Source of the DNA: Candidatus Omnitrophota bacterium
GTDB lineage: Bacteria; Omnitrophota; Gorgyraeia; Duberdicusellales; 4484-171
Reading direction: 5' to 3'
Assembly: GCA_014729775.1 (NCBI GenBank)
Contig: WJJJ01000032.1
Coordinates: 1-63,895, forward strand
Length of the DNA: 63,895 bases
The position numbers were made by a program, and so were the translations under genes. Positions 15,743 through 26,421 of this stretch are shown one piece after another. The notes beneath the pieces are model-generated. The model made no database searches. It worked only from the letters and a program-made list of their open reading frames with translations, and was not told where the DNA came from. Each line of letters begins with the position of its first letter. The first letter of the stretch is position 1.

Positions 15743-15771
15743 TTGACAGCGGAATAGGGCGGTGATAGAAT
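15743..15771 (+). promoter_or_regulatory. strong sigma70-type promoter of the DUF4912/GH57 operon
   Basis: TTGACA (15743-15748), 17 nt spacer, TAGAAT (15766-15771), with an extended -10 TG at 15763-15764. An SD-like GGGGAAG precedes the ATG at 15792. Confidence 0.55.
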
Positions 15772-15791
15772 TTGCTGTGCGTGGGGAAGAA

Positions 15792-16835
15792 ATGAAAAAA
15801 ACATCTGCCAAACCAAAGTCCGGAAAAAAGAAAGCTTCTCGTGCCGGACGTGTTCCCCGTGCAAAAAAAACCTCGCGTCGGACCCCTCGGATGTCCCGGA
15901 AAGCCCCTTCCGCGAAAGGAAAAAAGATCGTAAAAGGTTCCCTTTCGGTTGCTGCCGAACAGGAACACGTAGAGGAAACGAAATTCGACACGGCAACTAT
16001 GCCGCCGCGTGCCGCTGCCGTTCAGGAAAGCGGCAGCTACCCTCTGCCTCAGCGGTACCACGATGATCGCATGGTGTTGGTGTGCCGTGATCCCTGGTGG
16101 CTTTACGTATACTGGGATCCGTCCCGGGAAAAGATCAATTCCGTCATTTCTTCCATCCCGCAAAAATCACGGGAAGGAGTACGCTGGGTGCTTCGGGTGT
16201 ATGAAGTACGCGGCGGAGCGGACTTTTCCGTGCGTGACGCAGAGCGGTTTTTCGATCTGGAAATACAGTTCGAATCCGGGAATTGGTATATCAATGCCGG
16301 AGCGCCGGAGAAAAATTGGTGCGTCGAACTGGGGTTGAAGACCCGGGAAGGGAAGTTTTTCCCCGTTCTTCGGTCCAACCAGGTGAAGACCCCCTCCTAC
16401 GGAGTATCCCCGGAGATCGACGAAGAATGGGCACTGCCCGAAGAAGACTATTTAAAAGTGCTGGGGGGAGGATATGATGTCGTCGACATGGGGAAAAGTT
16501 CTCTCCAGCGGCAGGAACAAATCGCGGAATATCTCAGCCGGATGGTGTCGTCGCCGCTTGCTTCATGGGGGATCAGCAGTCCCTCGGGACGGGGCAGAGC
16601 GCCGGAAGAAAGTTTCTATCTGGAAGTAGGCACGGAACTTATTCTTTACGGCCGGACGGAGCACGATGCGGAAGTGACGGTGGACGGGAAGAACGTGAAG
16701 CTCCGGCCGGACGGTACGTTTACTCTTCGCTACGCGCTTCCGGAAGGGGACTTTAAATTTCCGGTCGTGGCGGTTTCAAAAAACAGGAAGCATCGCCGCG
16801 CCGAGACTCCCGCCGTAAGCCGGTATAAAAAATAA
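15792..16835 (+). CDS. DUF4912 domain protein with Lys/Arg-rich N-terminal tail
   Basis: 'RMVLVCRDPWWLYVYWD' is the DUF4912 hallmark and this family commonly neighbours GH57 enzymes. The first ~55 residues are about 45% K/R. Confidence 0.7.
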   Translation: MKKTSAKPKSGKKKASRAGRVPRAKKTSRRTPRMSRKAPSAKGKKIVKGSLSVAAEQEHVEETKFDTATMPPRAAAVQESGSYPLPQRYHDDRMVLVCRDPWWLYVYWDPSREKINSVISSIPQKSREGVRWVLRVYEVRGGADFSVRDAERFFDLEIQFESGNWYINAGAPEKNWCVELGLKTREGKFFPVLRSNQVKTPSYGVSPEIDEEWALPEEDYLKVLGGGYDVVDMGKSSLQRQEQIAEYLSRMVSSPLASWGISSPSGRGRAPEESFYLEVGTELILYGRTEHDAEVTVDGKNVKLRPDGTFTLRYALPEGDFKFPVVAVSKNRKHRRAETPAVSRYKK

Positions 16836-16857
16836 CAGGAATATTCTGGATTACGCG

Positions 16858-18441
16858 ATGGAAAAAGGATACATTTCATTTATCTTGCATGCGCATTTAC
16901 CGTTCGTCCGCCATCCCGAATACGAAGAGTTTCTGGAAGAACGGTGGCTTTTTGAGGCAATTACCGAAACCTATATTCCGCTTTTGGAAATGCTGGACGG
17001 CTTGCGGCGGGACAGCGTAGGGTACGCACTGACGCTTAATTTATCTCCCTCGTTGTGCAACATGCTGGGCGATGAACTCCTTCGCGACCGCTATGTGGTC
17101 CACCTCGATAAAACTCTGGAGTTGTGCGAAAAGGAAGTCGAACGGACCCGGTTCGATACGCGGTTCCATGCCGTGGCGTTGATGTACTATCATCGGTTCC
17201 GCCGCTCCAAAGAGCTCTTTCTCAACAGGTACCGGCGCGATATTCCGGAGCAGTTCAGAAAGCACCAGGAGAGCGGCAATCTGGAGATCATCACCTGTGC
17301 GGCCACGCACGGTTTTCTGCCGTTGATGGAGGTACATCCGGAAGCGGTACAGGCGCAGATTCGTGCCGGAGTTGATTCATACCGGAGATTTTTCGGGCGG
17401 GATCCCCGGGGGATCTGGATACCGGAATGCGCATATTTCGAAGGGCTGGACAAATATCTCAAAAAAGAAGGGCTTAAGTATTTTATTACCGAAACTCACG
17501 GGGTATTGTTCGCCCGTCCCCGGCCGAAGTTCGGGGTATATTCCGGTTATTATACCCCGAATCATGTTGCGGTCTTCGGTCGCGACGCGGAATCGTCAAA
17601 AAGCGTATGGTCTTCGATCGAGGGGTATCCCGGGGATTATCATTATCGGGAATATTACCGGGACGTTGGTTTTGATTTGGATTATGAGTACGTGAAACCG
17701 TATATCTCTTCCTGCGGGACGAGGATCTTCACCGGTTTGAAATATTACCGGATTACGGGGCAAACCCCGCACAAAGAACCCTATCAGCCGGAACGCGCAC
17801 TGGAAACCGCGGCGAGTCACGCCGGGAATTTTATGTTTAACCGTCAGCATCAGGTTACTCACCTGGAGCAGGCGATGGGACGCAAGCCGATTATCCTCTG
17901 TCCTTATGACGCGGAACTGTTCGGGCACTGGTGGTTTGAAGGAGTGCAGTGGCTGGATTTTCTGTTCCGGAAGATATGGCATGATCAGGATACCGTGCGG
18001 CTCGCCACGCCCGTGCAGTATCTTAAGCAGTATCCCAGGAATCAAGTCATTGAACCCGCGGCATCGAGCTGGGGATGGAAAGGGTACTACGAGGTCTGGC
18101 TTAACGGTTCCAACGACTGGATTTATCCCCATTTACACAAAGCGCAGGAGCGGATGATCGAGACCGTTCGTCAGTACCGGGGTGCCGGTGATGTCCGTGC
18201 CCGGATTTTGAATCAAATGGGCCGTGAACTTTTACTGGCGCAGTCCAGCGACTGGGCGTTCATGATGAAGACCGGGCATTTCACCGAGTATGCGCGCAAG
18301 CGCACGGTCACCCATCTGGAGCGGTTCGATCTTCTCCGGACATTTTTAGAAAGCGAATCTGTGAATGTCGAAAGGCTCCGGGAAATTGAACAAAGGGACA
18401 ACATATTCCCTGAGCTTACGTATTCAGTTTTTCAGCCTTAA
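16858..18441 (+). CDS. GH57-family 1,4-alpha-glucan branching enzyme
   Basis: 527 aa. 'ISFILHAHLPFVRHPEYEEFLEERWLFEAITETYIPLL', 'CPYDAELFGHWWFEG' and the C-terminal helical domain match GH57 branching enzymes. Confidence 0.8.
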   Translation: MEKGYISFILHAHLPFVRHPEYEEFLEERWLFEAITETYIPLLEMLDGLRRDSVGYALTLNLSPSLCNMLGDELLRDRYVVHLDKTLELCEKEVERTRFDTRFHAVALMYYHRFRRSKELFLNRYRRDIPEQFRKHQESGNLEIITCAATHGFLPLMEVHPEAVQAQIRAGVDSYRRFFGRDPRGIWIPECAYFEGLDKYLKKEGLKYFITETHGVLFARPRPKFGVYSGYYTPNHVAVFGRDAESSKSVWSSIEGYPGDYHYREYYRDVGFDLDYEYVKPYISSCGTRIFTGLKYYRITGQTPHKEPYQPERALETAASHAGNFMFNRQHQVTHLEQAMGRKPIILCPYDAELFGHWWFEGVQWLDFLFRKIWHDQDTVRLATPVQYLKQYPRNQVIEPAASSWGWKGYYEVWLNGSNDWIYPHLHKAQERMIETVRQYRGAGDVRARILNQMGRELLLAQSSDWAFMMKTGHFTEYARKRTVTHLERFDLLRTFLESESVNVERLREIEQRDNIFPELTYSVFQP

Positions 18442-18479
18442 CCGGGCGGAAAATCATTTTCCGTTCAGCTGCACTATTC

Positions 18480-20081
18480 ATGAAAAATTATCCTACCAAA
18501 ATAGTTTTACTCTGGCACATGCACCAGCCGAGTTACCGTCATCCGGAGAAACCGTATTTGCTGTTACCGTGGGTGAGACTGCGCGGGGTGAAAGATTACT
18601 ACGGGATGGCGCGGATGCTCGACCGGTTTCCCCAGGCAAAAGCGGTGGTAAATTTCAGCGGAGTGCTCCTTGAACAATTGAACGCGTACGCGAAGGGATC
18701 GGTAAAAGATCACGCGCTGGTGCTCTCGGAAAAGAAGCCGTCTGCGCTGAACGCGGAAGAATACCGGGTGCTGCGGGAACGGTTTTTTGACGTTCACTTT
18801 GAACACATGCTCAAACCCAATCCCCGGTATCTGGAGCTGTGGCAGAAGAAACAGGACGGAGTCAGATTTTCGCCGCAGGAAATCCTGGATCTGCAGGTGT
18901 GGTTTAATCTGGTCTGGTTTCATCCCTATACGCTCAAAGAAGAGGCGCGAGTGCGGCAGCTGAAGAAAAAGGGGAAGGGGTTCGAGGAGAGCGAAAAACA
19001 CTATGTGCTGTCGAAACACGCTTCCCTGATGCGAAAGATTTTACCGTTATATAAAAAACTGTCGGCGCAGAAAAAAATCGAGGTGACGCTATCTCCTTAT
19101 TATCATCCCATTTTGCCGCTGGTGCACGATAACCGCATCGTACGCCGCGTTCCCGGGGTCAAGGTGCCGCTGCGGAGATTTTCCGCGCCGGAAGACTGCC
19201 GCTGGCAGATAAGCGAATCAAAAAAAATATACCGTTCGATATTCGGCGGCCGGGCGCCGTCCGGCGCCTGGCCTTCCGAGGGGGCGATTTCCCGGGAAAC
19301 GCTGGAAATGATGGAACGGCAGGGGGTCCGCTGGGTCGGCACCGACGAAGCGTTACTGTATGAGAGTCTGGCCGGTGAGTTTGTGTCGGCCGAGATGCTG
19401 CGCAAACAGCGGCACCTGTTGTATCACCCTTATTCGTTTCGCCGCTTGAAGCTTTTCTTCCGTGACCGGGGATTGTCCGATCTGGTGAGCTTCGTGTATC
19501 AGGGCTGGGAAAATCAGGTAGCCGCCGCGGAGGATCTCATCGCGAATTTCCGCCGCATTCACTCGTCACTTTCTCATTTCACTCGGGAAAACGTGATCTC
19601 GATCATGATGGACGGGGAGAACGCCTGGGAGTATTACCGCAATAACGGAGTGGATTTCCTGGAGACATTATATACCCGCGTTGAAAAGGATGATTCTTTC
19701 TCTCTGGCCTATCCGCGCCAGCTTCTGCGGTCTCTTCGCGGGAAACACGTGCACGCTTTGCCCAAGATCGCGCCCGGCTCATGGATCAACGGGGATTTCG
19801 GCGTGTGGATCGGGAACGAGAGGAACAATACCTATTGGGATTTTCTGGCGCGAATCCGGAAATTGATTATGAAGAAAAAACGGACCAAGGCCGCGAAACA
19901 GGCGCGGCAGGTGCTCTATCGTTTGGAGAGCAGTGATTGGTTCTGGTGGAATACGTTTGACGATCCCCGGGGCGATTTTGAACGGATTTTTTTCGCGCTA
20001 TTGCGGAAAGCGTACCGCGTTCTGGGGAAAAAATATCCTGAACTGGAAAAGAGGTGGAAATCGGTAAAAAAAAGAACTTGA
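18480..20081 (+). CDS. GH57-family glycoside hydrolase (alpha-amylase / glucanotransferase type)
   Basis: 533 aa. 'IVLLWHMHQPSY', 'GVKDYYGM', 'MMDGENAWEYY' and 'GDFGVWIG' are GH57 conserved regions. Confidence 0.75.
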   Translation: MKNYPTKIVLLWHMHQPSYRHPEKPYLLLPWVRLRGVKDYYGMARMLDRFPQAKAVVNFSGVLLEQLNAYAKGSVKDHALVLSEKKPSALNAEEYRVLRERFFDVHFEHMLKPNPRYLELWQKKQDGVRFSPQEILDLQVWFNLVWFHPYTLKEEARVRQLKKKGKGFEESEKHYVLSKHASLMRKILPLYKKLSAQKKIEVTLSPYYHPILPLVHDNRIVRRVPGVKVPLRRFSAPEDCRWQISESKKIYRSIFGGRAPSGAWPSEGAISRETLEMMERQGVRWVGTDEALLYESLAGEFVSAEMLRKQRHLLYHPYSFRRLKLFFRDRGLSDLVSFVYQGWENQVAAAEDLIANFRRIHSSLSHFTRENVISIMMDGENAWEYYRNNGVDFLETLYTRVEKDDSFSLAYPRQLLRSLRGKHVHALPKIAPGSWINGDFGVWIGNERNNTYWDFLARIRKLIMKKKRTKAAKQARQVLYRLESSDWFWWNTFDDPRGDFERIFFALLRKAYRVLGKKYPELEKRWKSVKKRT

Positions 20082-20156: not shown

Positions 20157-20396
20157 ATGTTGATGAGAAGACGCAAAACGACCAAAGCACCGGAGAAAAA
20201 AATGGTGAAAAAACCGGCGAAAATGAGCAGGAAAAAAAACCGGGGACCGCAAAAAGGAATGCTCAATGAGGCCCTGCTCAATCAAATGATCCAGGAACGG
20301 GCGTATTTTATCTGGGAAGAAAAAGGGAAACCGGCCGCGCAGGATGTCCAGATTTGGAGTGAAGCCGAACGGGAGATCCGCGCGCAGTTTTCCTGA
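20157..20396 (+). CDS. DUF2934 domain protein with basic N-terminal tail
   Basis: 'ERAYFIWEEKGKPAAQDVQIWSEAEREI' matches the DUF2934 motif. The N-terminal 35 residues are K/R-rich. Confidence 0.6.
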   Translation: MLMRRRKTTKAPEKKMVKKPAKMSRKKNRGPQKGMLNEALLNQMIQERAYFIWEEKGKPAAQDVQIWSEAEREIRAQFS

Positions 20397-20818: not shown

Positions 20819-22014
20819 GCGAAATTCCGAGAGGTTTTCTCTGGGGCGCCGCCATATCCAGTTATCAGTGTGAGGGCGGCAATACCGCGAGTGACTGGTG
20901 TGTCTGGGAACGGCAAAAGAAGCTTACCGCCGCCGGTGACGCCAGCCGTCATTATACTCTTTTCGACGATGATTTCTCTCTGGCCCGGGAAACGGGTCTC
21001 AACAGCCTCAGGTTTTCTTTAGAGTGGGCCCGGCTGCAGCCCGCGGCCGGCGGATGGAACGAACAGGAATTTGCCCATTACGAAACCGTGCTTTCCAGTC
21101 TCGCCGCGCATCAGCTCGTTCCTTTCATCACGCTTCATCATTTCACGTTGCCGTTATGGTATGCGGCCCGCGGAGGATTTGAGAATCCGCGCAATATCGA
21201 TTTGTTCCTGCGTTATCTTCGTGAAGCCGCCGTGCGCTTTCGGGACCGGGCGGTGTATTGGATCATTTTCAACGAGCCTCTGGTGTACATAGTGAACGGA
21301 TACCTTCGGGGTATCTGGCCGCCGGGGAAAAAGTCGCTCTCCTCCGCGCTCAGGACACTCAAAAACATCCTGTCCTGTTATGAAACCGCCTACCAGGAAA
21401 TGAAACAAATATACGGATCTCGTGAGTGCCGGATCTCGCTGAGCAAACATTTTCGTGTTTTTTTCCCCTGCAACCGGTATCACATTTTTGACCGTCTGTC
21501 CAGCGGCGTACGGGCGAAATCGTTCAATTTTTGGCTCGATGACCTGTTGGCGCGAAGGAGACTTCTTGATTTCGTCGGCGTCAATTATTACTGCGGCGAG
21601 TTTGTCCGGACAAAAGGCCTGTTCGGCGCCGAATGCGCGCATACCGGGCACGCGCTGTCACGGAACGCGGTGGGGTGGTATCTGTATCCGGAAGGGCTGA
21701 AAAAGATTTTGATGCGGCTGAAAAGACTTTCCCTGCCGGTGATCGTTACCGAAAACGGAACCGCCGAAACCGACGAAGCGCGGTACGCGGAGTATCTCCG
21801 GCGTCATCTGGAACAGGTCGCTGCCGCGCGCGCCGAAGGGGTGGACCTGCGGGGCTATTTCTGGTGGTCCTTGATCGACAATTTTGAGTGGGATCTTGGG
21901 TTCGGACCGAGATTCGGATTATACCGGGTCGATTACCGGACCTACGAACGGGTAATGCGGCCGCACGCGGCACTATACCGGGATCTCATCCGCGGTGCCG
22001 GAGGCGGTAGGTGA
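20788..22014 (+). CDS. GH1-family beta-glucosidase
   Basis: 'FLWGAAISSYQCEG', the acid/base motif 'IIFNEPLVY' and the nucleophile motif 'VIVTENGTAE'. The GTG start is uncertain. Confidence 0.8.
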   Translation: MFGLERGRVLSEIPRGFLWGAAISSYQCEGGNTASDWCVWERQKKLTAAGDASRHYTLFDDDFSLARETGLNSLRFSLEWARLQPAAGGWNEQEFAHYETVLSSLAAHQLVPFITLHHFTLPLWYAARGGFENPRNIDLFLRYLREAAVRFRDRAVYWIIFNEPLVYIVNGYLRGIWPPGKKSLSSALRTLKNILSCYETAYQEMKQIYGSRECRISLSKHFRVFFPCNRYHIFDRLSSGVRAKSFNFWLDDLLARRRLLDFVGVNYYCGEFVRTKGLFGAECAHTGHALSRNAVGWYLYPEGLKKILMRLKRLSLPVIVTENGTAETDEARYAEYLRRHLEQVAAARAEGVDLRGYFWWSLIDNFEWDLGFGPRFGLYRVDYRTYERVMRPHAALYRDLIRGAGGGR

Positions 22015-22109
22015 GGCGCGGAAATTACGCCCGGAAAAATTCATTGCGTCAGCGGGGAAATACGGTATAGTATACGTTCAGAGAGCGGAGCCCGCAGAAG
22101 CAGGAGAGA

Positions 22110-22949
22110 GTGATGAAGAAGTTTTGTGTGACGCTGTGTGTGTTGGTATCGGGAGTACTCGGCGGCGCGTATGCGCAGGAAATCGAGGATCGGTTCCAGG
22201 GAGACGATACCATAAGTTACCGGGTGTACTTTAACGGGATCCCCGTCGGGAAAACGGAATGGACCTATATCGGCACCGAAGACGTGCGGGGAGTATCGGC
22301 CGAAGTGCTTGAGATCCAGTCAGATGCGAAAATTTTGCACTTTCTTGATTTGAAAGGGGAAGAACGGGTGTATTTGCACGGGGAAACGCATCTTCCGGTT
22401 CAGGTCGAGAGGGATATTGTTTTTTTCGGGCGCAAAGAAAGAATTCGCGAAGTGTATAACCAGCAGGAAGGGGTGGTAAAGGTACATAAACAGAATTCGA
22501 AAGAGGAGAAGAAAACCATCCGTCAGCAGCCGCCGATCCATAATATTCTCTCTCTCTTGTATTTTTTCCCCGACGATACTGGTCTGCAGAAAGGAGAAAC
22601 CGAAGTATACCGCCTTCCGACGCAGGAAGTGGAAATCAATTTCCACTCGCAAAAAGTACTCAAATTTCACGGAGAGGAGCGCGACACTTATTTTCTGGTA
22701 GGACGGGGAGCGAAAAGGTTTAATCTCTGGCTGGATCAAGATCTTCGCCTGCCGTTACGACTGGAATTTTTCATCCCCTTCGGCAAGATCACGATCGTAA
22801 AGGAAAAATCGGACCTTAATGTATCTGCAGCAGGGAATTCCGCCCCCCGAATGAATCGTTTTCACTTAAGGCGTTGTGCGGATCAGGGATCCATTTATTC
22901 TCGGCAAGGAATTTATACCGATAAGTTCCTTTTTCAAGAGAAAGATTAA
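22110..22949 (+). CDS. secreted DUF3108-like protein
   Basis: Signal peptide 'MMKKFCVTLCVLVSGVLGGAYAQ' and a beta-rich body ('YRVYFNGIPVGKTEWTY'). The last ~45 codons run antisense to the ParA-CBM48 gene, so the true 3' end is uncertain. Confidence 0.45.
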   Translation: MMKKFCVTLCVLVSGVLGGAYAQEIEDRFQGDDTISYRVYFNGIPVGKTEWTYIGTEDVRGVSAEVLEIQSDAKILHFLDLKGEERVYLHGETHLPVQVERDIVFFGRKERIREVYNQQEGVVKVHKQNSKEEKKTIRQQPPIHNILSLLYFFPDDTGLQKGETEVYRLPTQEVEINFHSQKVLKFHGEERDTYFLVGRGAKRFNLWLDQDLRLPLRLEFFIPFGKITIVKEKSDLNVSAAGNSAPRMNRFHLRRCADQGSIYSRQGIYTDKFLFQEKD

Positions 22950-23841
22950 TGCTCCAGAGATCCGGTCCTATTTTCTTCAATTTATAGGAATCCTCTTTTT
23001 GCCAGTCGTTAAAATCTCCGACCACGTACACTTCTTCCAGATTTTGTTTTTTCAGGAAAAGCGGTGTCCAGGAGACTTCACCGGTGATCCGTTGCATTTC
23101 TTTCGCCAGCGAGCGGAAGTCCTCCGCGCCGCGGGAGTCCGGCTTAAAGCGAAACACGTCGCAGCCGTTCGCCGACGCTTCCTTTAAGTGCACGTTGGTC
23201 CGGATACGGGAGGAAAGCAGTAAATTTCCCATTTGTTGCCGTGTCTTTTGGAGAAATTGTTTCACGTACCGCGAACGCTGGTCAACCTGGTTGAGCAGGT
23301 AAAACGGCGCCGGCGCGCTGCCTTTGAATTCTTTGATCATTAAGAGAATATTCTTCAGGATTTGCGTGCCCTGAAGAGAGAAGTCGCACGTCATCAGGGG
23401 GATGAGCGCGTATTCGCTCGCGACCAACGCGTTCAGCGTGAGCAGTCCCAGGTTGGGCGGACAGTCGATCAAGAGGTAGTCGAAATCAAGCCCGGCCGAG
23501 AGGAGGAATTTTTCGACAATTTTCAGCTTGTCATCCCGCGAGGTAAGGGTATGTTCCAGTGACGCCAGGCCGAGCGAAGCCGGAAGGAGGTGAAAATTCG
23601 GCGCGAGTTCAACGGTCAGGTTTCCCTCGGGAAAGGAGCGGTTCGTTGAGGCCGCTTCCAGCAGATCCGTGATCGTGACCCGAGGAGTTTCGCGGAGAAC
23701 CGAGAAGGTCGCGTGGCTTTGCGGGTCCAGGTCAATGAGCAGTACCCGTTTTCCTCCCTGGCCCAGCGCCGCGGCGAGATTCACGGCGGTGATCGTTTTT
23801 CCGCATCCTCCTTTTTGATTCACCACGGATATAATTTTCAT
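22816..23841 (-). CDS. ParA/MinD-family ATPase fused to a C-terminal CBM48 (AMPK-beta type glycogen-binding) module
   Basis: Deviant Walker A 'NQKGGCGKT' and 'LLIDLDPQ', 'LIDCPP'. The C-terminal 85 aa ('VYVVGDFNDWQKEDSYKLKKIGPDLWSINLSLEKGTYRYKFLAENKWIPDPHN') match CBM48/E-set. The ATG at 23841 is preceded by AGGAGGGGG. Confidence 0.8.
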   Translation of the reverse strand: MKIISVVNQKGGCGKTITAVNLAAALGQGGKRVLLIDLDPQSHATFSVLRETPRVTITDLLEAASTNRSFPEGNLTVELAPNFHLLPASLGLASLEHTLTSRDDKLKIVEKFLLSAGLDFDYLLIDCPPNLGLLTLNALVASEYALIPLMTCDFSLQGTQILKNILLMIKEFKGSAPAPFYLLNQVDQRSRYVKQFLQKTRQQMGNLLLSSRIRTNVHLKEASANGCDVFRFKPDSRGAEDFRSLAKEMQRITGEVSWTPLFLKKQNLEEVYVVGDFNDWQKEDSYKLKKIGPDLWSINLSLEKGTYRYKFLAENKWIPDPHNALSENDSFGGRNSLLQIH

Positions 23842-24551
23842 TCCCCCTCCTTTTTGGCCAGCACAAGATCTTTTACGAGTACCCATTCTATTTCCTGCTC
23901 GCGCCGCATGGAAACCGGCACCGGTTCAGCTTCGCTATCGAGACGGGAAACAAATACTTTAAGCTGTGACGTTCTGGTGATATTGGTGTTTTGCAGCTCG
24001 GCGTTCGCCAGCGTGATCGGTACTTTTACGTAGGTGAGCTCTTTTTCCGGGATGTCAATATGCACGGGGTAAAGAGAATTCGAGTGGTATTGGGTGTCTC
24101 TGAGCACTAATTCCATGTGAATGGGGATTTCTGATTTCTGGATAACCATCGCCAGCCGGTGGGTATTCAGATTCACGGGCGAAGCGAAGGTGACGGTCAC
24201 GCCCGTGGCTCCTTTTGACGGGAGCGCGATGTACGCGCTGCGGCCCCGTTTCCTGAACCGCTGCGCGCTGGCTCTGACCGGCCGGAATACGGCTCCTTTA
24301 TGGAGCAGTGAGATTTCCTGTTCCGAACTGTTCCCTAACTTCCGCGGAATAAAGAAAAACTGGTAGTGAGAAAATACCAGTACAATGAGGGCGATTCCCA
24401 GAAAAACTCCCGCGCCGATCCAAAACGGTTTTTTGTTTCGGGGAGGCCGGGAAGGGGCAGAAAAAAACGCGTCTTTGAGCCGTTGTGAATCGAGGTACGT
24501 GTATGAGAACGTCATATCTTCTTTTTTCTCCATAACAGTGTATATTAGCAT
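23838..24551 (-). CDS. single-pass membrane protein, translationally coupled to ParA-CBM48
   Basis: A short N-terminal region, TM segment 'FWIGAGVFLGIALIVLVFSHYQFFF', and a ~170-aa beta-rich C-terminal domain. Its stop overlaps the ParA start (ATGA). The start may instead be the ATG at 24533. No family was recognised. Confidence 0.5.
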   Translation of the reverse strand: MLIYTVMEKKEDMTFSYTYLDSQRLKDAFFSAPSRPPRNKKPFWIGAGVFLGIALIVLVFSHYQFFFIPRKLGNSSEQEISLLHKGAVFRPVRASAQRFRKRGRSAYIALPSKGATGVTVTFASPVNLNTHRLAMVIQKSEIPIHMELVLRDTQYHSNSLYPVHIDIPEKELTYVKVPITLANAELQNTNITRTSQLKVFVSRLDSEAEPVPVSMRREQEIEWVLVKDLVLAKKEGE

Positions 24552-24570
24552 TGAATTATTCCCAAATCAA
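24542..24570 (-). promoter_or_regulatory. candidate promoter of the membrane-protein/ParA-CBM48 operon
   Basis: On the minus strand: TTGATT (24570-24565), 17 nt spacer, TAATAT (24547-24542). The ATG at 24533 lies 9 nt downstream, so the mRNA may be leaderless. Confidence 0.4.
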
Positions 24571-24579
24571 CTATATAAT
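24551..24579 (+). promoter_or_regulatory. near-consensus sigma70-type promoter of lpxA
   Basis: TTGAAT (24551-24556), 17 nt spacer, TATAAT (24574-24579). It overlaps the divergent promoter. Confidence 0.55.
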
Positions 24580-24668
24580 CACTCTGGACAGATCATGGAA
24601 AGAGGCTGGGTGCTTGATCCTGGATGCGGGGCGTCGGGGAAAGAAGCCGGGAGGAAACGGAAGAGCAC

Positions 24669-25553
24669 ATGGAAGATCGACAGAATCAGGACATTCATCC
24701 AACTGCGGTGATCGAGGAGGGCGCGCGGCTTGGTTCCGGAGTATCGGTCGGGCCTTATGCGGTGATCGAGGCCGGAGTGCGCCTGGACGATGACGTCAGC
24801 ATCGGGCCGCACGCCCATGTGAAAGGCCGTACCCGGGTAGGAGCCGGTACGACCATCGGTACCGGCGCGCAGCTCGGGGAACGTCCCCAGATGAGAAAAA
24901 ATGAACCCGTGCCGGGGAATCTTGAGATCGGCCGCGGAAACGTGATTCGCGAATACGTGACGATTCACGTATCGACTTCGCCGGAGACGGCGACCCGCAT
25001 CGGGGATGACAATTTTCTCATGGGGTTTTCTCATGTCGCTCATGATTGTCAACTCGGCGATTCGATCACGATGTGCAACGGAACGCTCGTCGCCGGCCAC
25101 GCGCAGATCGAATCCCGGGCTTTTCTTTCGGGCAACGTCACCGTGCATCAGTTCGTGCGTATCGGCCAGCTGGCGATGATCGGCGGATTAGCCCGGGTCA
25201 ATCAGGATGTTCCGCCGTATATGATGATAGTAGGCGATTCCCGGGTGTGGGGGTTGAACGTAGTCGGTCTGCGGCGGGCCGGAGTATCGCGGGAGGAAAT
25301 GAAACTGCTCAAAAAAGCCCACGCCGTTCTTTATCGCCGCGGCCTTTCCCCGCGTCACGCGCGGGAAGAACTGCGGAAAATGGATTCACCGCTGATCCAC
25401 TCTTTATCCCGGTTCCTTGACGAGTCGCGGCGCGGCGTGTGCGGACCGAGAAAGGGAACGTTATGGGAAACACTCTTTCTCGAGTATCCGTATTTCGTGC
25501 GTACCGCCGTTCCTGCGTACCGCCATTTTCTCCGCGGTGAACGCCGGACCTAA
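24669..25553 (+). CDS. lpxA: acyl-ACP--UDP-N-acetylglucosamine O-acyltransferase
   Basis: Left-handed beta-helix hexapeptide repeats starting 'IHPTAVIEEGARLGSGVSVGPYAVIEAGVRLDDDVSIGPHAHV', then a C-terminal helical domain. The ATG at 24669 fits the canonical N-terminus. Confidence 0.85.
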   Translation: MEDRQNQDIHPTAVIEEGARLGSGVSVGPYAVIEAGVRLDDDVSIGPHAHVKGRTRVGAGTTIGTGAQLGERPQMRKNEPVPGNLEIGRGNVIREYVTIHVSTSPETATRIGDDNFLMGFSHVAHDCQLGDSITMCNGTLVAGHAQIESRAFLSGNVTVHQFVRIGQLAMIGGLARVNQDVPPYMMIVGDSRVWGLNVVGLRRAGVSREEMKLLKKAHAVLYRRGLSPRHAREELRKMDSPLIHSLSRFLDESRRGVCGPRKGTLWETLFLEYPYFVRTAVPAYRHFLRGERRT

Positions 25554-25632: not shown

Positions 25633-26421
25633 TTATTCCGGTTTTTCCGCGGGGGGCGAAGACGGGATGGTTTTTGTCGCGAATACGATCCATCCGGTGT
25701 GTGACGGCATTCTTTGCTCGGGGCGGGTTTTCCCCGGCCGTACCAAAATCTTCCGGAGAAAGATTTCCATACTTTCGATATTGGTGAATTCGTTTTCTTT
25801 CAACGTGAACACCGTACGCGAGAGCTGTTCGAATGTCGGGCAGATAGTGGCCAGCACCGCGCCTCCTTTTAAGGCCTTGCGCGCGGGTTCGATCAATTCC
25901 CAGGGACTGCCGATGTCGATCATTACGAAGTCGGCGTCTTTTTCTTCATATTCGTCGATCACCTCGCGGTGTTTGAATTCGACCCATTCCGCCAGTCCGT
26001 TTTTTTCGATATTTGCCCGCGCGTTCTTTAAGAATATTTCATTTCGCTCGTAGCTGTATACTTTCCCTCGGGGCCGGACGAAATTTGCCAGGGCGGTGGT
26101 GAGCGCGCCGCTGCCCGCGCCGGATTCAATCACTTTCGCTCCGGGGTAAATTTGCGCCTTCATCAGGATCATGCCGATATCCTTCGGGTAGAGAATCTGG
26201 GTTTTCCGTTTGATCAGCATGATTTTCTCGTGTAACGAGGGCCGTAAAAGGGAAAAGGGCTTTCCCAGATTGGTATAGACCGTTTCCCCGTAACTGCGGC
26301 CGATGAGCTCTTGGAGATCTATGAATCCCTGATCGGTATGCAGACGCCGTTTCCCCGCACTGCGCAGAAAGCTGCGGCGGTAATCGTGAAAGAGGTATAC
26401 CAGGTCGCCTTCTCGAATCAT
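25633..26421 (-). CDS. trmI: tRNA (adenine-N1)-methyltransferase (TrmI/Gcd14 family)
   Basis: N-terminal beta domain 'EGDLVYLFHDYRRSFL...' and SAM motif 'VIESGAGSGALTTALA'. Confidence 0.8.
   Translation of the reverse strand: MIREGDLVYLFHDYRRSFLRSAGKRRLHTDQGFIDLQELIGRSYGETVYTNLGKPFSLLRPSLHEKIMLIKRKTQILYPKDIGMILMKAQIYPGAKVIESGAGSGALTTALANFVRPRGKVYSYERNEIFLKNARANIEKNGLAEWVEFKHREVIDEYEEKDADFVMIDIGSPWELIEPARKALKGGAVLATICPTFEQLSRTVFTLKENEFTNIESMEIFLRKILVRPGKTRPEQRMPSHTGWIVFATKTIPSSPPAEKPE

Follow-up and report, generated by a model that had tools for sequence, protein, structure and literature searches.

The window analysed here is a stretch of 63,895 nucleotides from a Candidatus Omnitrophota bacterium (contig WJJJ01000032.1), and our subject is a pair of adjacent genes on its minus strand. 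One of them encodes a ParA-type ATPase joined to a carbohydrate-binding module (CBM) of family 48 and is called ParA-CBM48 here; the other, located just upstream of it, encodes a small membrane protein that we refer to as the partner. The coordinates given in the original prediction, 22816-24551, span two minus-strand genes and not one. The ParA-CBM48 gene occupies positions 22816..23841 (minus strand) and encodes 341 amino acids (aa) followed by a stop codon. Its reading frame is uninterrupted across 22816..23886 (minus strand), and the mechanical open reading frame (ORF) therefore reaches 23886 (356 aa). The probable start is nevertheless the ATG at 23841, with AAGGAGGGGG as ribosome-binding site just 5' of it, and in the family alignment the homologues all start at the equivalent MK(V/I)IS, which matches this ATG. 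The partner gene is located at 23838..24533 (minus strand). Read from the ATG at 24533, its product is a single-pass membrane protein of 231 aa; starting at 24551 or 24515 instead would give 237 or 225 aa, respectively. The TGA stop codon of the partner gene and the start codon of ParA-CBM48 overlap as ATGA at 23838..23841 (minus strand), indicative of translational coupling, and the same 4-nt overlap is found in loci L001, L003, L007, L009, L087 and L089 (the loci compared are denoted by such numbers). The two-gene module is separated by 72 bp from lpxA, and a scan of positions 22000-25000 for sigma-70 promoters and terminators gave nothing informative.

Residues 1-252 of ParA-CBM48 (23086..23841, minus strand) were assigned to a ParA/Soj-type ATPase domain on the basis of Pfam, PDB matches, an AlphaFold2 (AF2) model and Foldseek. 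It had been claimed that one ORF holds a complete ParA with a deviant Walker A motif together with an AMPK-beta/CBM48 domain, and the Pfam searches agree with this: the AAA_31 model matches with an E-value of 1.1e-41 (residues 16-186 in the numbering of the 356-aa ORF), and the CBM matches PF16561 with 43.7 bits. CbiA follows AAA_31 with 1.2e-19 and other ParA/MinD-type models are weaker, all of them falling on the first ~250 residues; the BcsQ model spans the whole ATPase domain (2.4e-13). None of the NCBIfam models reaches its cut-off on the ParA-CBM48 protein. The nearest PDB sequence is that of ParA 8ray (7.8e-33), followed by the Soj proteins of T. thermophilus and H. pylori (1wcv and 6iub). 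The AF2 model has a predicted local distance difference test score (pLDDT) of 91.8 and a predicted TM-score (pTM) of 0.90, and its comparison by Foldseek gave TM-scores to the target of 0.87-0.89 for ParA/Soj, so that the predicted fold is that of ParA. The deviant Walker A motif KGGCGKT (N8-Q-K10-G-G-C-G-K15-T16; 23794..23814, minus strand) contains the signature lysine K10, which is invariant, as is K15, across 55 aligned fusions. The switch I/Walker A' aspartates D37 and D39 lie in LIDLDPQ and the Walker B residue D126 in LLIDCPP; together with K10, G11, G12, K15 and T16, these three aspartates are invariant in the family alignment. Judged by this alignment, the ATPase lacks none of the motifs that a Soj-type ParA uses for catalysis and dimerisation.

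The C-terminal part, residues 257-341 (22819..23073, minus strand), corresponds to an AMPK-beta-type CBM48 according to PF16561, the solved AMPK CBM structures and the AF2 model, in which this domain is all-beta. The AMPK1_CBM model (PF16561) matches the last 75 residues (281-355 of the 356-aa ORF) with an E-value of 3.3e-11, and its score lies well above the gathering threshold of 26.8 bits. Of the two family models put forward as a check, this one thus holds, whereas CBM_48 (PF02922) reaches 18.3 bits in the window protein, under its cut-off of 22.4; in related fusions it scores above the cut-off, with 28.5-40.5 bits. The best matches among solved structures are the CBMs of AMPK beta2 (1.6e-5) and beta1 (4.8e-5), followed by CBM48/X25-type modules of pullulanase and neopullulanase. 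In AMPK beta1, residues W100, K126, W133, L146 and T148 touch the sugar, and mutating them markedly lowers glycogen binding (PMC2642990). In our alignment, W280, K310, W317, F331, G333 and N335 of the window protein correspond to W100, K126, W133, L146, T148 and N150 of rat AMPK beta1, respectively. Hence, three of the five sugar contacts are identical (W280, K310 and W317), one is replaced conservatively (L146 by F331), and T148 is replaced by G333. Both tryptophans are present in all 55 fusions, whichever the clade; the K310 position is K or R in 55/55 fusions, the F331 position is F or Y in 54/54, the N335 position is N or D, and the T148-equivalent position is Gly or variable. The C-terminal domain is thus, by its matches and aligned residues, an AMPK-beta-type CBM48 with intact sugar-binding residues. 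The linker between ATPase and CBM is ~5 residues in the Omnitrophota clade of the window protein (clade 1) and 25-100 residues longer in other clades.

Domains of the E-set/CBM48-like type often scaffold proteins, and the CBM of AMPK is also packed against the kinase. One alternative is that the C-terminal beta-sandwich has lost its sugar binding and would instead mediate protein contacts or dimerisation in an orphan ParA whose cargo is of another kind. The pTM of the two-domain model suggests a fixed packing, which would suit such a role, as would the Gly or variable residue at the T148 position. However, the residues that are best conserved across phyla are the sugar-stacking tryptophan pair, the lysine and the asparagine, and adjacency to GH57 (glycoside hydrolase family 57) or glycogen-synthase-like genes recurs in different arrangements, as described below. 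We consider a sugar-blind module very unlikely.

A concern raised with the original prediction was that the fusion might be a frameshift or assembly artefact at the junction of the two domains. The 120 best homologous clusters (E-values 5e-137 to 1e-88, 44-61% identity, ~340 aa) have the same architecture including PF16561, with a single exception, which is a protein cut at a contig end. All named clusters among them derive from metagenome-assembled genomes (MAGs) of Candidatus Omnitrophica/Omnitrophota, and the deposited annotation is "AAA family ATPase" or, at JGI, "chromosome partitioning protein". An artefact is ruled out by the conservation of this architecture in at least 120 clusters and in several phyla. 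The proposed survey of the ParA-CBM48 architecture was carried out by scanning the C-terminal 110 residues against one genome per GTDB species, which yielded at least 80 loci. Among 80 listed loci, the matched CBM ends a protein whose N-terminal part contains KGGxxK[ST] in at least 24, and L054, from Latescibacterota, contains one further fusion, which brings the fusion genes to at least 25. The fusions fall into clade 1 of Omnitrophota (340 aa), a second Omnitrophota clade (clade 2; 354-379 aa, with about 35% identity to the window protein) and, among the matches listed, three MAGs of Desulfobacterota/"delta proteobacterium" (377 aa), three Planctomycetota (398-444 aa) and one of Latescibacterota (362 aa); representatives of these groups were confirmed with Pfam. 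In the other listed loci, the CBM belongs to short stand-alone proteins, to four-copy proteins of ~480 aa or to glycoside hydrolases. The plasmid collection contained no plasmid-borne fusion, and only ordinary ParA proteins matched, over the ATPase part. On this distribution, the ParA-CBM48 fusion is genuine and ancient, and spread over at least four phyla.

This CBM type also occurs in multiple copies, with four tandem copies in the ~480-aa proteins of Chitinophagaceae and relatives and 13-18 copies in giant proteins of 4,000-7,400 aa; such multi-copy proteins are found among loci L025, L035, L036, L047, L062 and others. A search of a representative library with the CBM returned mostly these multi-copy proteins, with the ParA fusions reduced to one representative, and is unfit for family counts.

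The loop with consensus [MV]-I-P-[KR]-[SN] is typical of Soj-type proteins, and the DNA-binding patch of B. subtilis Soj consists of R189/K201/R215/R218 (PMC6393308). The canonical I-P-[KR]-[SN] sequence is present in none of the 55 aligned fusions; the corresponding sequence is IRTN in the window protein, whereas clade 2 has IH[VI]N, Desulfobacterota have IRLN and Planctomycetota have [IV]NFN. The cysteine of KGGCGKT is common to the listed ParA-CBM48 fusions of all phyla, and DPQxH is kept in the fusion alignment with two exceptions among 55. These features define a recognisable ParA subfamily (KGGCGKT, DPQxH, no IPRN loop), and because they are shared across phyla the fusions look like a distinct subfamily rather than Soj proteins that each gained a domain. 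The equivalent of Soj R189 is invariant, position 201 is mostly K/R, and K/R220 is an additional basic residue of the fusions. Positions 215 and 218 differ (see below), which leaves the patch only partly conserved; DNA binding by ParA-CBM48 is no more than plausible.

An explanation that makes full use of this likeness is that the protein serves Omnitrophota as the ParA (Soj) for chromosome segregation, acting with a ParB from another part of the genome, and that its CBM48 is a regulatory glycogen sensor that couples segregation or the cell cycle to the carbon in store. The CBM of AMPK is a proven allosteric glycogen sensor (PMC2642990), and chromosomal ParA/Soj proteins are the nearest to the ATPase in both sequence and fold (8ray, 1wcv and 6iub, TM-score 0.89). 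The invariant R189, which is the Soj DNA-binding arginine, and the JGI family name also fit this explanation, but the IPRN loop is missing and the family has signature residues of its own. The module is conserved as a single copy per locus throughout the phylum, and gidA/mnmG neighbours it in L003, L005 and L006; however, gidA is on the opposite strand and is absent in closer relatives. A parB gene adjoins the fusion neither in the window nor in any other locus, no ParB Pfam family was detected among the called neighbours, neither the window nor the fetched loci (728 kb) contain the ParB motif GERRxRA, and the coupled gene encodes a membrane protein. Moreover, the fusion is also present in Planctomycetota and Desulfobacterota, which generally have ordinary ParAB, so that the fusion there would be an extra, orphan ParA. 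Taking these points together, and as far as the fetched loci show, we regard a segregation ParA as unlikely.

The original prediction had noted the ATGA coupling to a single-pass membrane protein of unknown family, and this protein proved to be a conserved partner. A same-strand gene encoding a protein of 186-266 aa precedes ParA-CBM48 in every Omnitrophota locus for which upstream sequence is available, often with the 4-nt overlap. The partner contains one hydrophobic helix and has no match in Pfam or NCBIfam; its homologues are few and fast-evolving, and a profile search added only three hits. Its N-terminus contains a conserved helix, Y-L-D-S-Q-R-L-K-D-A-F-F (24462..24497, minus strand; supported by the alignment and by AF2 helix 7-18), followed by a Lys/Arg-rich stretch; the peptide sequence is MEKKEDMTFSYTYLDSQRLKDAFFSAPSRPPRNKK. 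In clade 1, the motif is Y-x-Y-L-D-S-Q-R-L-K-x-x-F-F, with F17 invariant and F18 and D9 conserved in at least 90%, and it is followed by the Lys/Arg-rich stretch, one hydrophobic helix and a beta-rich domain of ~150 residues. Clade 2 partners have a like layout, consisting of K-K-E-I-Y-E-H-L-A-x-I-Y-L, a K-rich stretch, a transmembrane helix and a beta domain. The transmembrane helix of the window partner, assigned from the AF2 model and the flanking charges, covers residues 29-50 in the numbering of the 225-aa form (24366..24431, minus strand). In 21/21 homologues, the 15 residues before this helix have a net charge of +2 to +8, which is equal to or higher than that of the following 15 residues. 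These flanking charges obey the positive-inside rule, which predicts a cytoplasmic N-terminus and a large domain on the outer side of the membrane (N-in/C-out). The partner is thus predicted to expose about 30-50 residues, comprising the conserved helix and the Lys-rich tail, to the cytoplasm, and this helix is a candidate ParA-contacting peptide.

The AF2 model of the partner, which was built on a multiple sequence alignment of six sequences (pLDDT 71, with about 63-89 by 10-residue block in the core), contains a helix at 7-18, a helix at 29-50 and a beta-sandwich. This C-terminal beta-sandwich (23853..24314, minus strand) resembles, with moderate confidence, a CBM-like jelly-roll that is predicted to be extracytoplasmic. 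Its best matches in a Foldseek search of the PDB are CBM29, CBM16, CBM11, CBM61 and CBM86, with E-values of 1e-5 to 1e-4 and TM-scores of at most 0.66.

The window also contains the predicted alpha-glucan cluster, DUF4912-GH57-GH57, made up of DUF4912 (15762-16835), a GH57 branching enzyme (16858-18441) and a second GH57 gene (18480-20081), all on the plus strand and assigned with Pfam. We treat this cluster (15762..20081, plus strand) as context and do not claim its membership of the system. It is more distant than had been stated: the nearest GH57 end (20081) is 2.7 kb from the 3' end of ParA-CBM48, and the 0.8 kb given before is the distance to the GH1 gene. The intervening genes encode DUF2934, ACT, GH1 and DUF3108 proteins. 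In clade 1, the order of partner and then ParA-CBM48 is constant, with a convergent DUF3108 gene on one side and a divergent lpxA and/or radical-SAM gene on the other, and the GH57/DUF4912 cluster is located 1.3-4.7 kb downstream of the module in the window, L002, L087 and L088. A closer arrangement is seen in clade 2, where an AlgE-like porin (PF13372), GH57, the partner, ParA-CBM48 and two small proteins are encoded in this order on one strand with short gaps. GH57 lies just upstream of partner and ParA-CBM48 in 10 such loci, and two more keep the porin without GH57. The clade-2 GH57 proteins (510-523 aa) match their family from residue 5 and hence have no signal peptide, which indicates that the glucan chemistry is cytoplasmic.

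Outside Omnitrophota, the Latescibacterota locus L054 (WVZY01000017.1, 2092-6959) encodes the fusion and, directly after it, a stand-alone CBM48 protein of 125 aa and two starch-synthase-like proteins (Glyco_transf_5/GT4), and in the Phycisphaerae locus L072 a glycosyltransferase-domain protein is encoded upstream of the fusion. The 125-aa protein of L054 has a Lys/Arg-rich basic N-terminal tail and looks like a possible separate adaptor. The linkage to alpha-glucan enzymes recurs in at least three different arrangements, and this recurrence is the strongest support for the glycogen idea beyond the domain itself. With the co-operonic GH57 of clade 2, the starch-synthase-like genes of Latescibacterota and the invariant tryptophans of the sugar site, the alpha-glucan link is stronger than it first appeared.

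We therefore propose, tentatively and with slightly less than even confidence, that the two genes form a module through which a ParA-family ATPase is linked to alpha-glucan inside the cell (glycogen), for tethering or partitioning. In the mechanism that we envisage, ATP binding would dimerise the ATPase, and the dimer would show two CBM48 modules and so have high avidity for branched glucan. The dimer would also assemble a basic surface (R189, K/R201, R214 and K/R220) that could engage a matrix, with the nucleoid as the likeliest one, and the ATP-bound form could thereby tether glycogen particles. The N-terminal peptide of the partner might recruit the dimer or stimulate the ATPase, like the peptides of ParB, MinE and McdB, and hydrolysis would return low-avidity monomers and release the granule. 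In sum, the module would keep glycogen in place, space it or pass it on evenly in very small cells, or else retain it at the membrane. Omnitrophota cells are among the smallest known (PMC10066038), and the spacing of glycogen could matter if such tiny cells hold few granules; MAGs of this phylum are reported to encode glycogen synthesis (PMC8542988).

A more specific form of the proposal, which is possible but which we rather doubt, is that ParA-CBM48 acts as motor or tether in a system dedicated to the inheritance or positioning of glycogen granules, and thus represents a new class of ParA cargo in at least four phyla. The monomer-dimer cycle would then switch the avidity for both glucan and matrix, and in Omnitrophota it would be set by the cytoplasmic tail of the membrane partner. 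Positioning of granules by the system is inferred here from domain logic. A radical variant, in which the ATPase forms its patterns on the glycogen particle itself and not on the nucleoid, is at best very improbable.

Several observations weigh against coupling to glycogen as proposed above. First, a fused cargo binder misfits the classical adaptor-driven diffusion ratchet; a tethering or avidity mechanism would be more natural for it. Second, the DNA-binding patch is conserved in part, as the equivalent of B. subtilis Soj R215 is Thr, with an invariant Arg at 214, and that of R218 is His/Ser in clade 1 and Lys in clade 2. Third, the GH57 linkage in clade 1 may be inherited synteny. The cluster is absent within 10 kb in the distant clade-1 loci L003, L005, L006 and L089, and in L001 (CP070684.1, 15613-15891) it has shrunk to a 92-aa AmyA-gluTrfs_C fragment at a position where relatives carry two or three GH57 genes and DUF4912, while the partner/ParA-CBM48 pair is intact. 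Fourth, a comparison of clade 1 and clade 2 partners with hhalign gave a probability of 23%, with only the last strand aligned; we therefore claim equivalent position and architecture, not homology, between the partners of the two clades. Fifth, the large domain of the partner is predicted, with moderate confidence, to be outside the cytoplasm, where the proposal gives it no role. Sixth, the family is experimentally uncharacterised. Finally, a gene for an AlgE-like porin (PF13372, Alginate_exp) is repeatedly found next to the module, in both clades of Omnitrophota, which could point to a role in the envelope or in polysaccharide export.

This last point, together with the bitopic topology of the partner and its predicted extracytoplasmic jelly-roll resembling CBMs, leads to another explanation, namely that the ATPase organises, in the manner of BcsQ or MinD, an apparatus for polysaccharide or alpha-glucan that spans the envelope. 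It would dock on the partner, the periplasmic CBM-like domain and the porin would handle a glycan outside the cytoplasm, and the CBM48 would hold cytoplasmic glucan, as substrate or product, nearby. The porin gene belongs to the clade-2 operon (L023, 128-1030; L012, 1079-2488) and lies within 3-6 kb of the module in L005 (13457-14740), L006 (10504-11790) and L089 (15519-16925), but PF13372 proteins are perhaps the general porin of these cells. Envelope genes are also found nearby, with Wzy_C and GT2 (glycosyltransferase family 2) genes downstream in L023, lpx, BamA and Skp genes in L003 and the divergent lpxA in the window; however, consistent linkage to a synthase, an ABC component or any other part of a transporter is lacking. 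The Pfam BcsQ model covers the full ATPase domain, whereas the score against the BcsQ equivalog (TIGR03371) is 73.9, compared with a cut-off of 157.85. The GH57 proteins point to the cytoplasm, and the fusions of other phyla do without both partner and porin. We judge such an organiser to be quite unlikely, and continue with the coupling of the ATPase to intracellular glycogen as our working proposal.

Bacteria generally rely on ParA/MinD ATPases to place large objects such as chromosomes, plasmids, carboxysomes, chemoreceptor arrays and division sites, and glycogen is the most widespread carbon store. We know of no ParA/MinD system for glycogen, and to our knowledge the distribution of glycogen at bacterial division is essentially unstudied. 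The original prediction likewise knew of no characterised ParA system for glycogen. Full-text literature searches found none, nor any paper linking a ParA-type ATPase to glycogen or CBM48, nor a description of a member of the family. The Omnitrophota genomics papers PMC10066038 and PMC8542988 do not mention ParA/ParB, and glycogen (its synthesis) is mentioned in PMC8542988 only. A ParA with a fused glucan-binding module is a directly testable candidate for glycogen placement, and the fusion poses a mechanistic question in that it departs from the rule of a separate adaptor between ATPase and cargo. Our analysis also provides a plausible role for a conserved pair of "hypothetical" and "AAA family ATPase" genes of the uncultured, ultra-small Omnitrophota.

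The window and the 1.27-Mb Omnitrophota genome CP070684 are collinear (FtsK, RodZ, MiaB, then the module, then iPGM and CstA). GC skew is positive in every 2-kb bin of the window and almost all genes are on the plus strand; the few minus-strand genes include the partner/ParA-CBM48 pair and a GCD14 methyltransferase gene (25633-26421). The DUF3108 ORF (22110-22949, plus strand) has a 46-aa C-terminal extension that is missing in its L001 and L002 orthologues and that runs antisense through the CBM48 codons, creating a convergent overlap of 134 nt and pointing to the loss of a stop codon, or to an error in the sequence, near 22811. Between the GH57 and ACT genes, a 79-aa DUF2934 protein (20157-20396, plus strand) is encoded that weakly matches DUF7067 of alpha-glucan water dikinase, and the position of this gene is kept in L001, L002, L087 and L088. 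A gene for a cyclic nucleotide-binding (cNMP-binding) patatin of 616-634 aa lies between DUF3108 (or the module) and GH1 in L001, L087, L088 and L089; it is not present at positions 22014-22110 of the window. In L006 (14626-17763), a pyruvate phosphate dikinase of 1397 aa shows faint Pfam hits to intein and LAGLIDADG domains and is possibly intein-containing.

Other members of the ParA/MinD superfamily were considered as identities for the ATPase. BY-kinase, MinD, BcsQ, MipZ and NifH-like identities were rejected, as all scores are far under the curated cut-offs. For MinD, the score against TIGR01968 is 44 compared with a cut-off of 212.9, the C-terminus is a beta-sandwich CBM and not an amphipathic helix, and no minC or minE gene was found among the module neighbours. 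For BcsQ, the low equivalog score is accompanied by the absence of bcs genes from the neighbourhoods of the module. For McdA, the structures 6non/6noo match with only 1.6e-10 over residues 1-162, and neither an McdB adaptor nor a carboxysome operon was found near the module.

Compared with known systems, the ATPase is closest to chromosomal ParA/Soj (1wcv/2bek of T. thermophilus, 6iub of H. pylori and 8ray), with which it shares the deviant Walker A lysine, the switch aspartates, Walker B, the invariant R189 equivalent and the predicted fold, at 29-33% identity. The window protein has KGGCGKT where Soj has KGGVGKT, DPQxH for DPQGN and IRTN for IPRN, and adds a CBM48 and coupling to a membrane protein, with no adjoining parB. 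The CBM of AMPK beta (CBM48; 1z0m, 2f15 and 4y0g) is the best structural match of the C-terminal domain, which keeps W100, K126, W133 and N150 and has F/Y for L146; it differs in being bacterial, in being mounted on a P-loop ATPase and not on a kinase scaffold, and in having Gly or a variable residue for T148. BcsQ is another ParA/MinD-fold ATPase tied to polysaccharide biology and membrane proteins (Foldseek TM-score 0.77-0.78), but there is no bcsA, bcsB, bcsR or bcsE near the window gene, and BcsQ itself has no CBM. In the plant PTST family of plastid proteins, a CBM48 brings a partner protein to an alpha-glucan granule; the targeting by CBM48 would be alike, whereas PTST proteins are eukaryotic coiled-coil scaffolds without an ATPase. 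Finally, McdA-McdB, PpfA-TlpT, ParC-ParP and PomXYZ are orphan ParA systems in which a separate adaptor binds the cargo. By analogy, the module would resemble them in pairing a ParA-type ATPase for a non-DNA cytoplasmic cargo with a short N-terminal peptide of a second protein. The module differs from these systems in that cargo recognition is fused to the ATPase itself and that the partner is embedded in the membrane.

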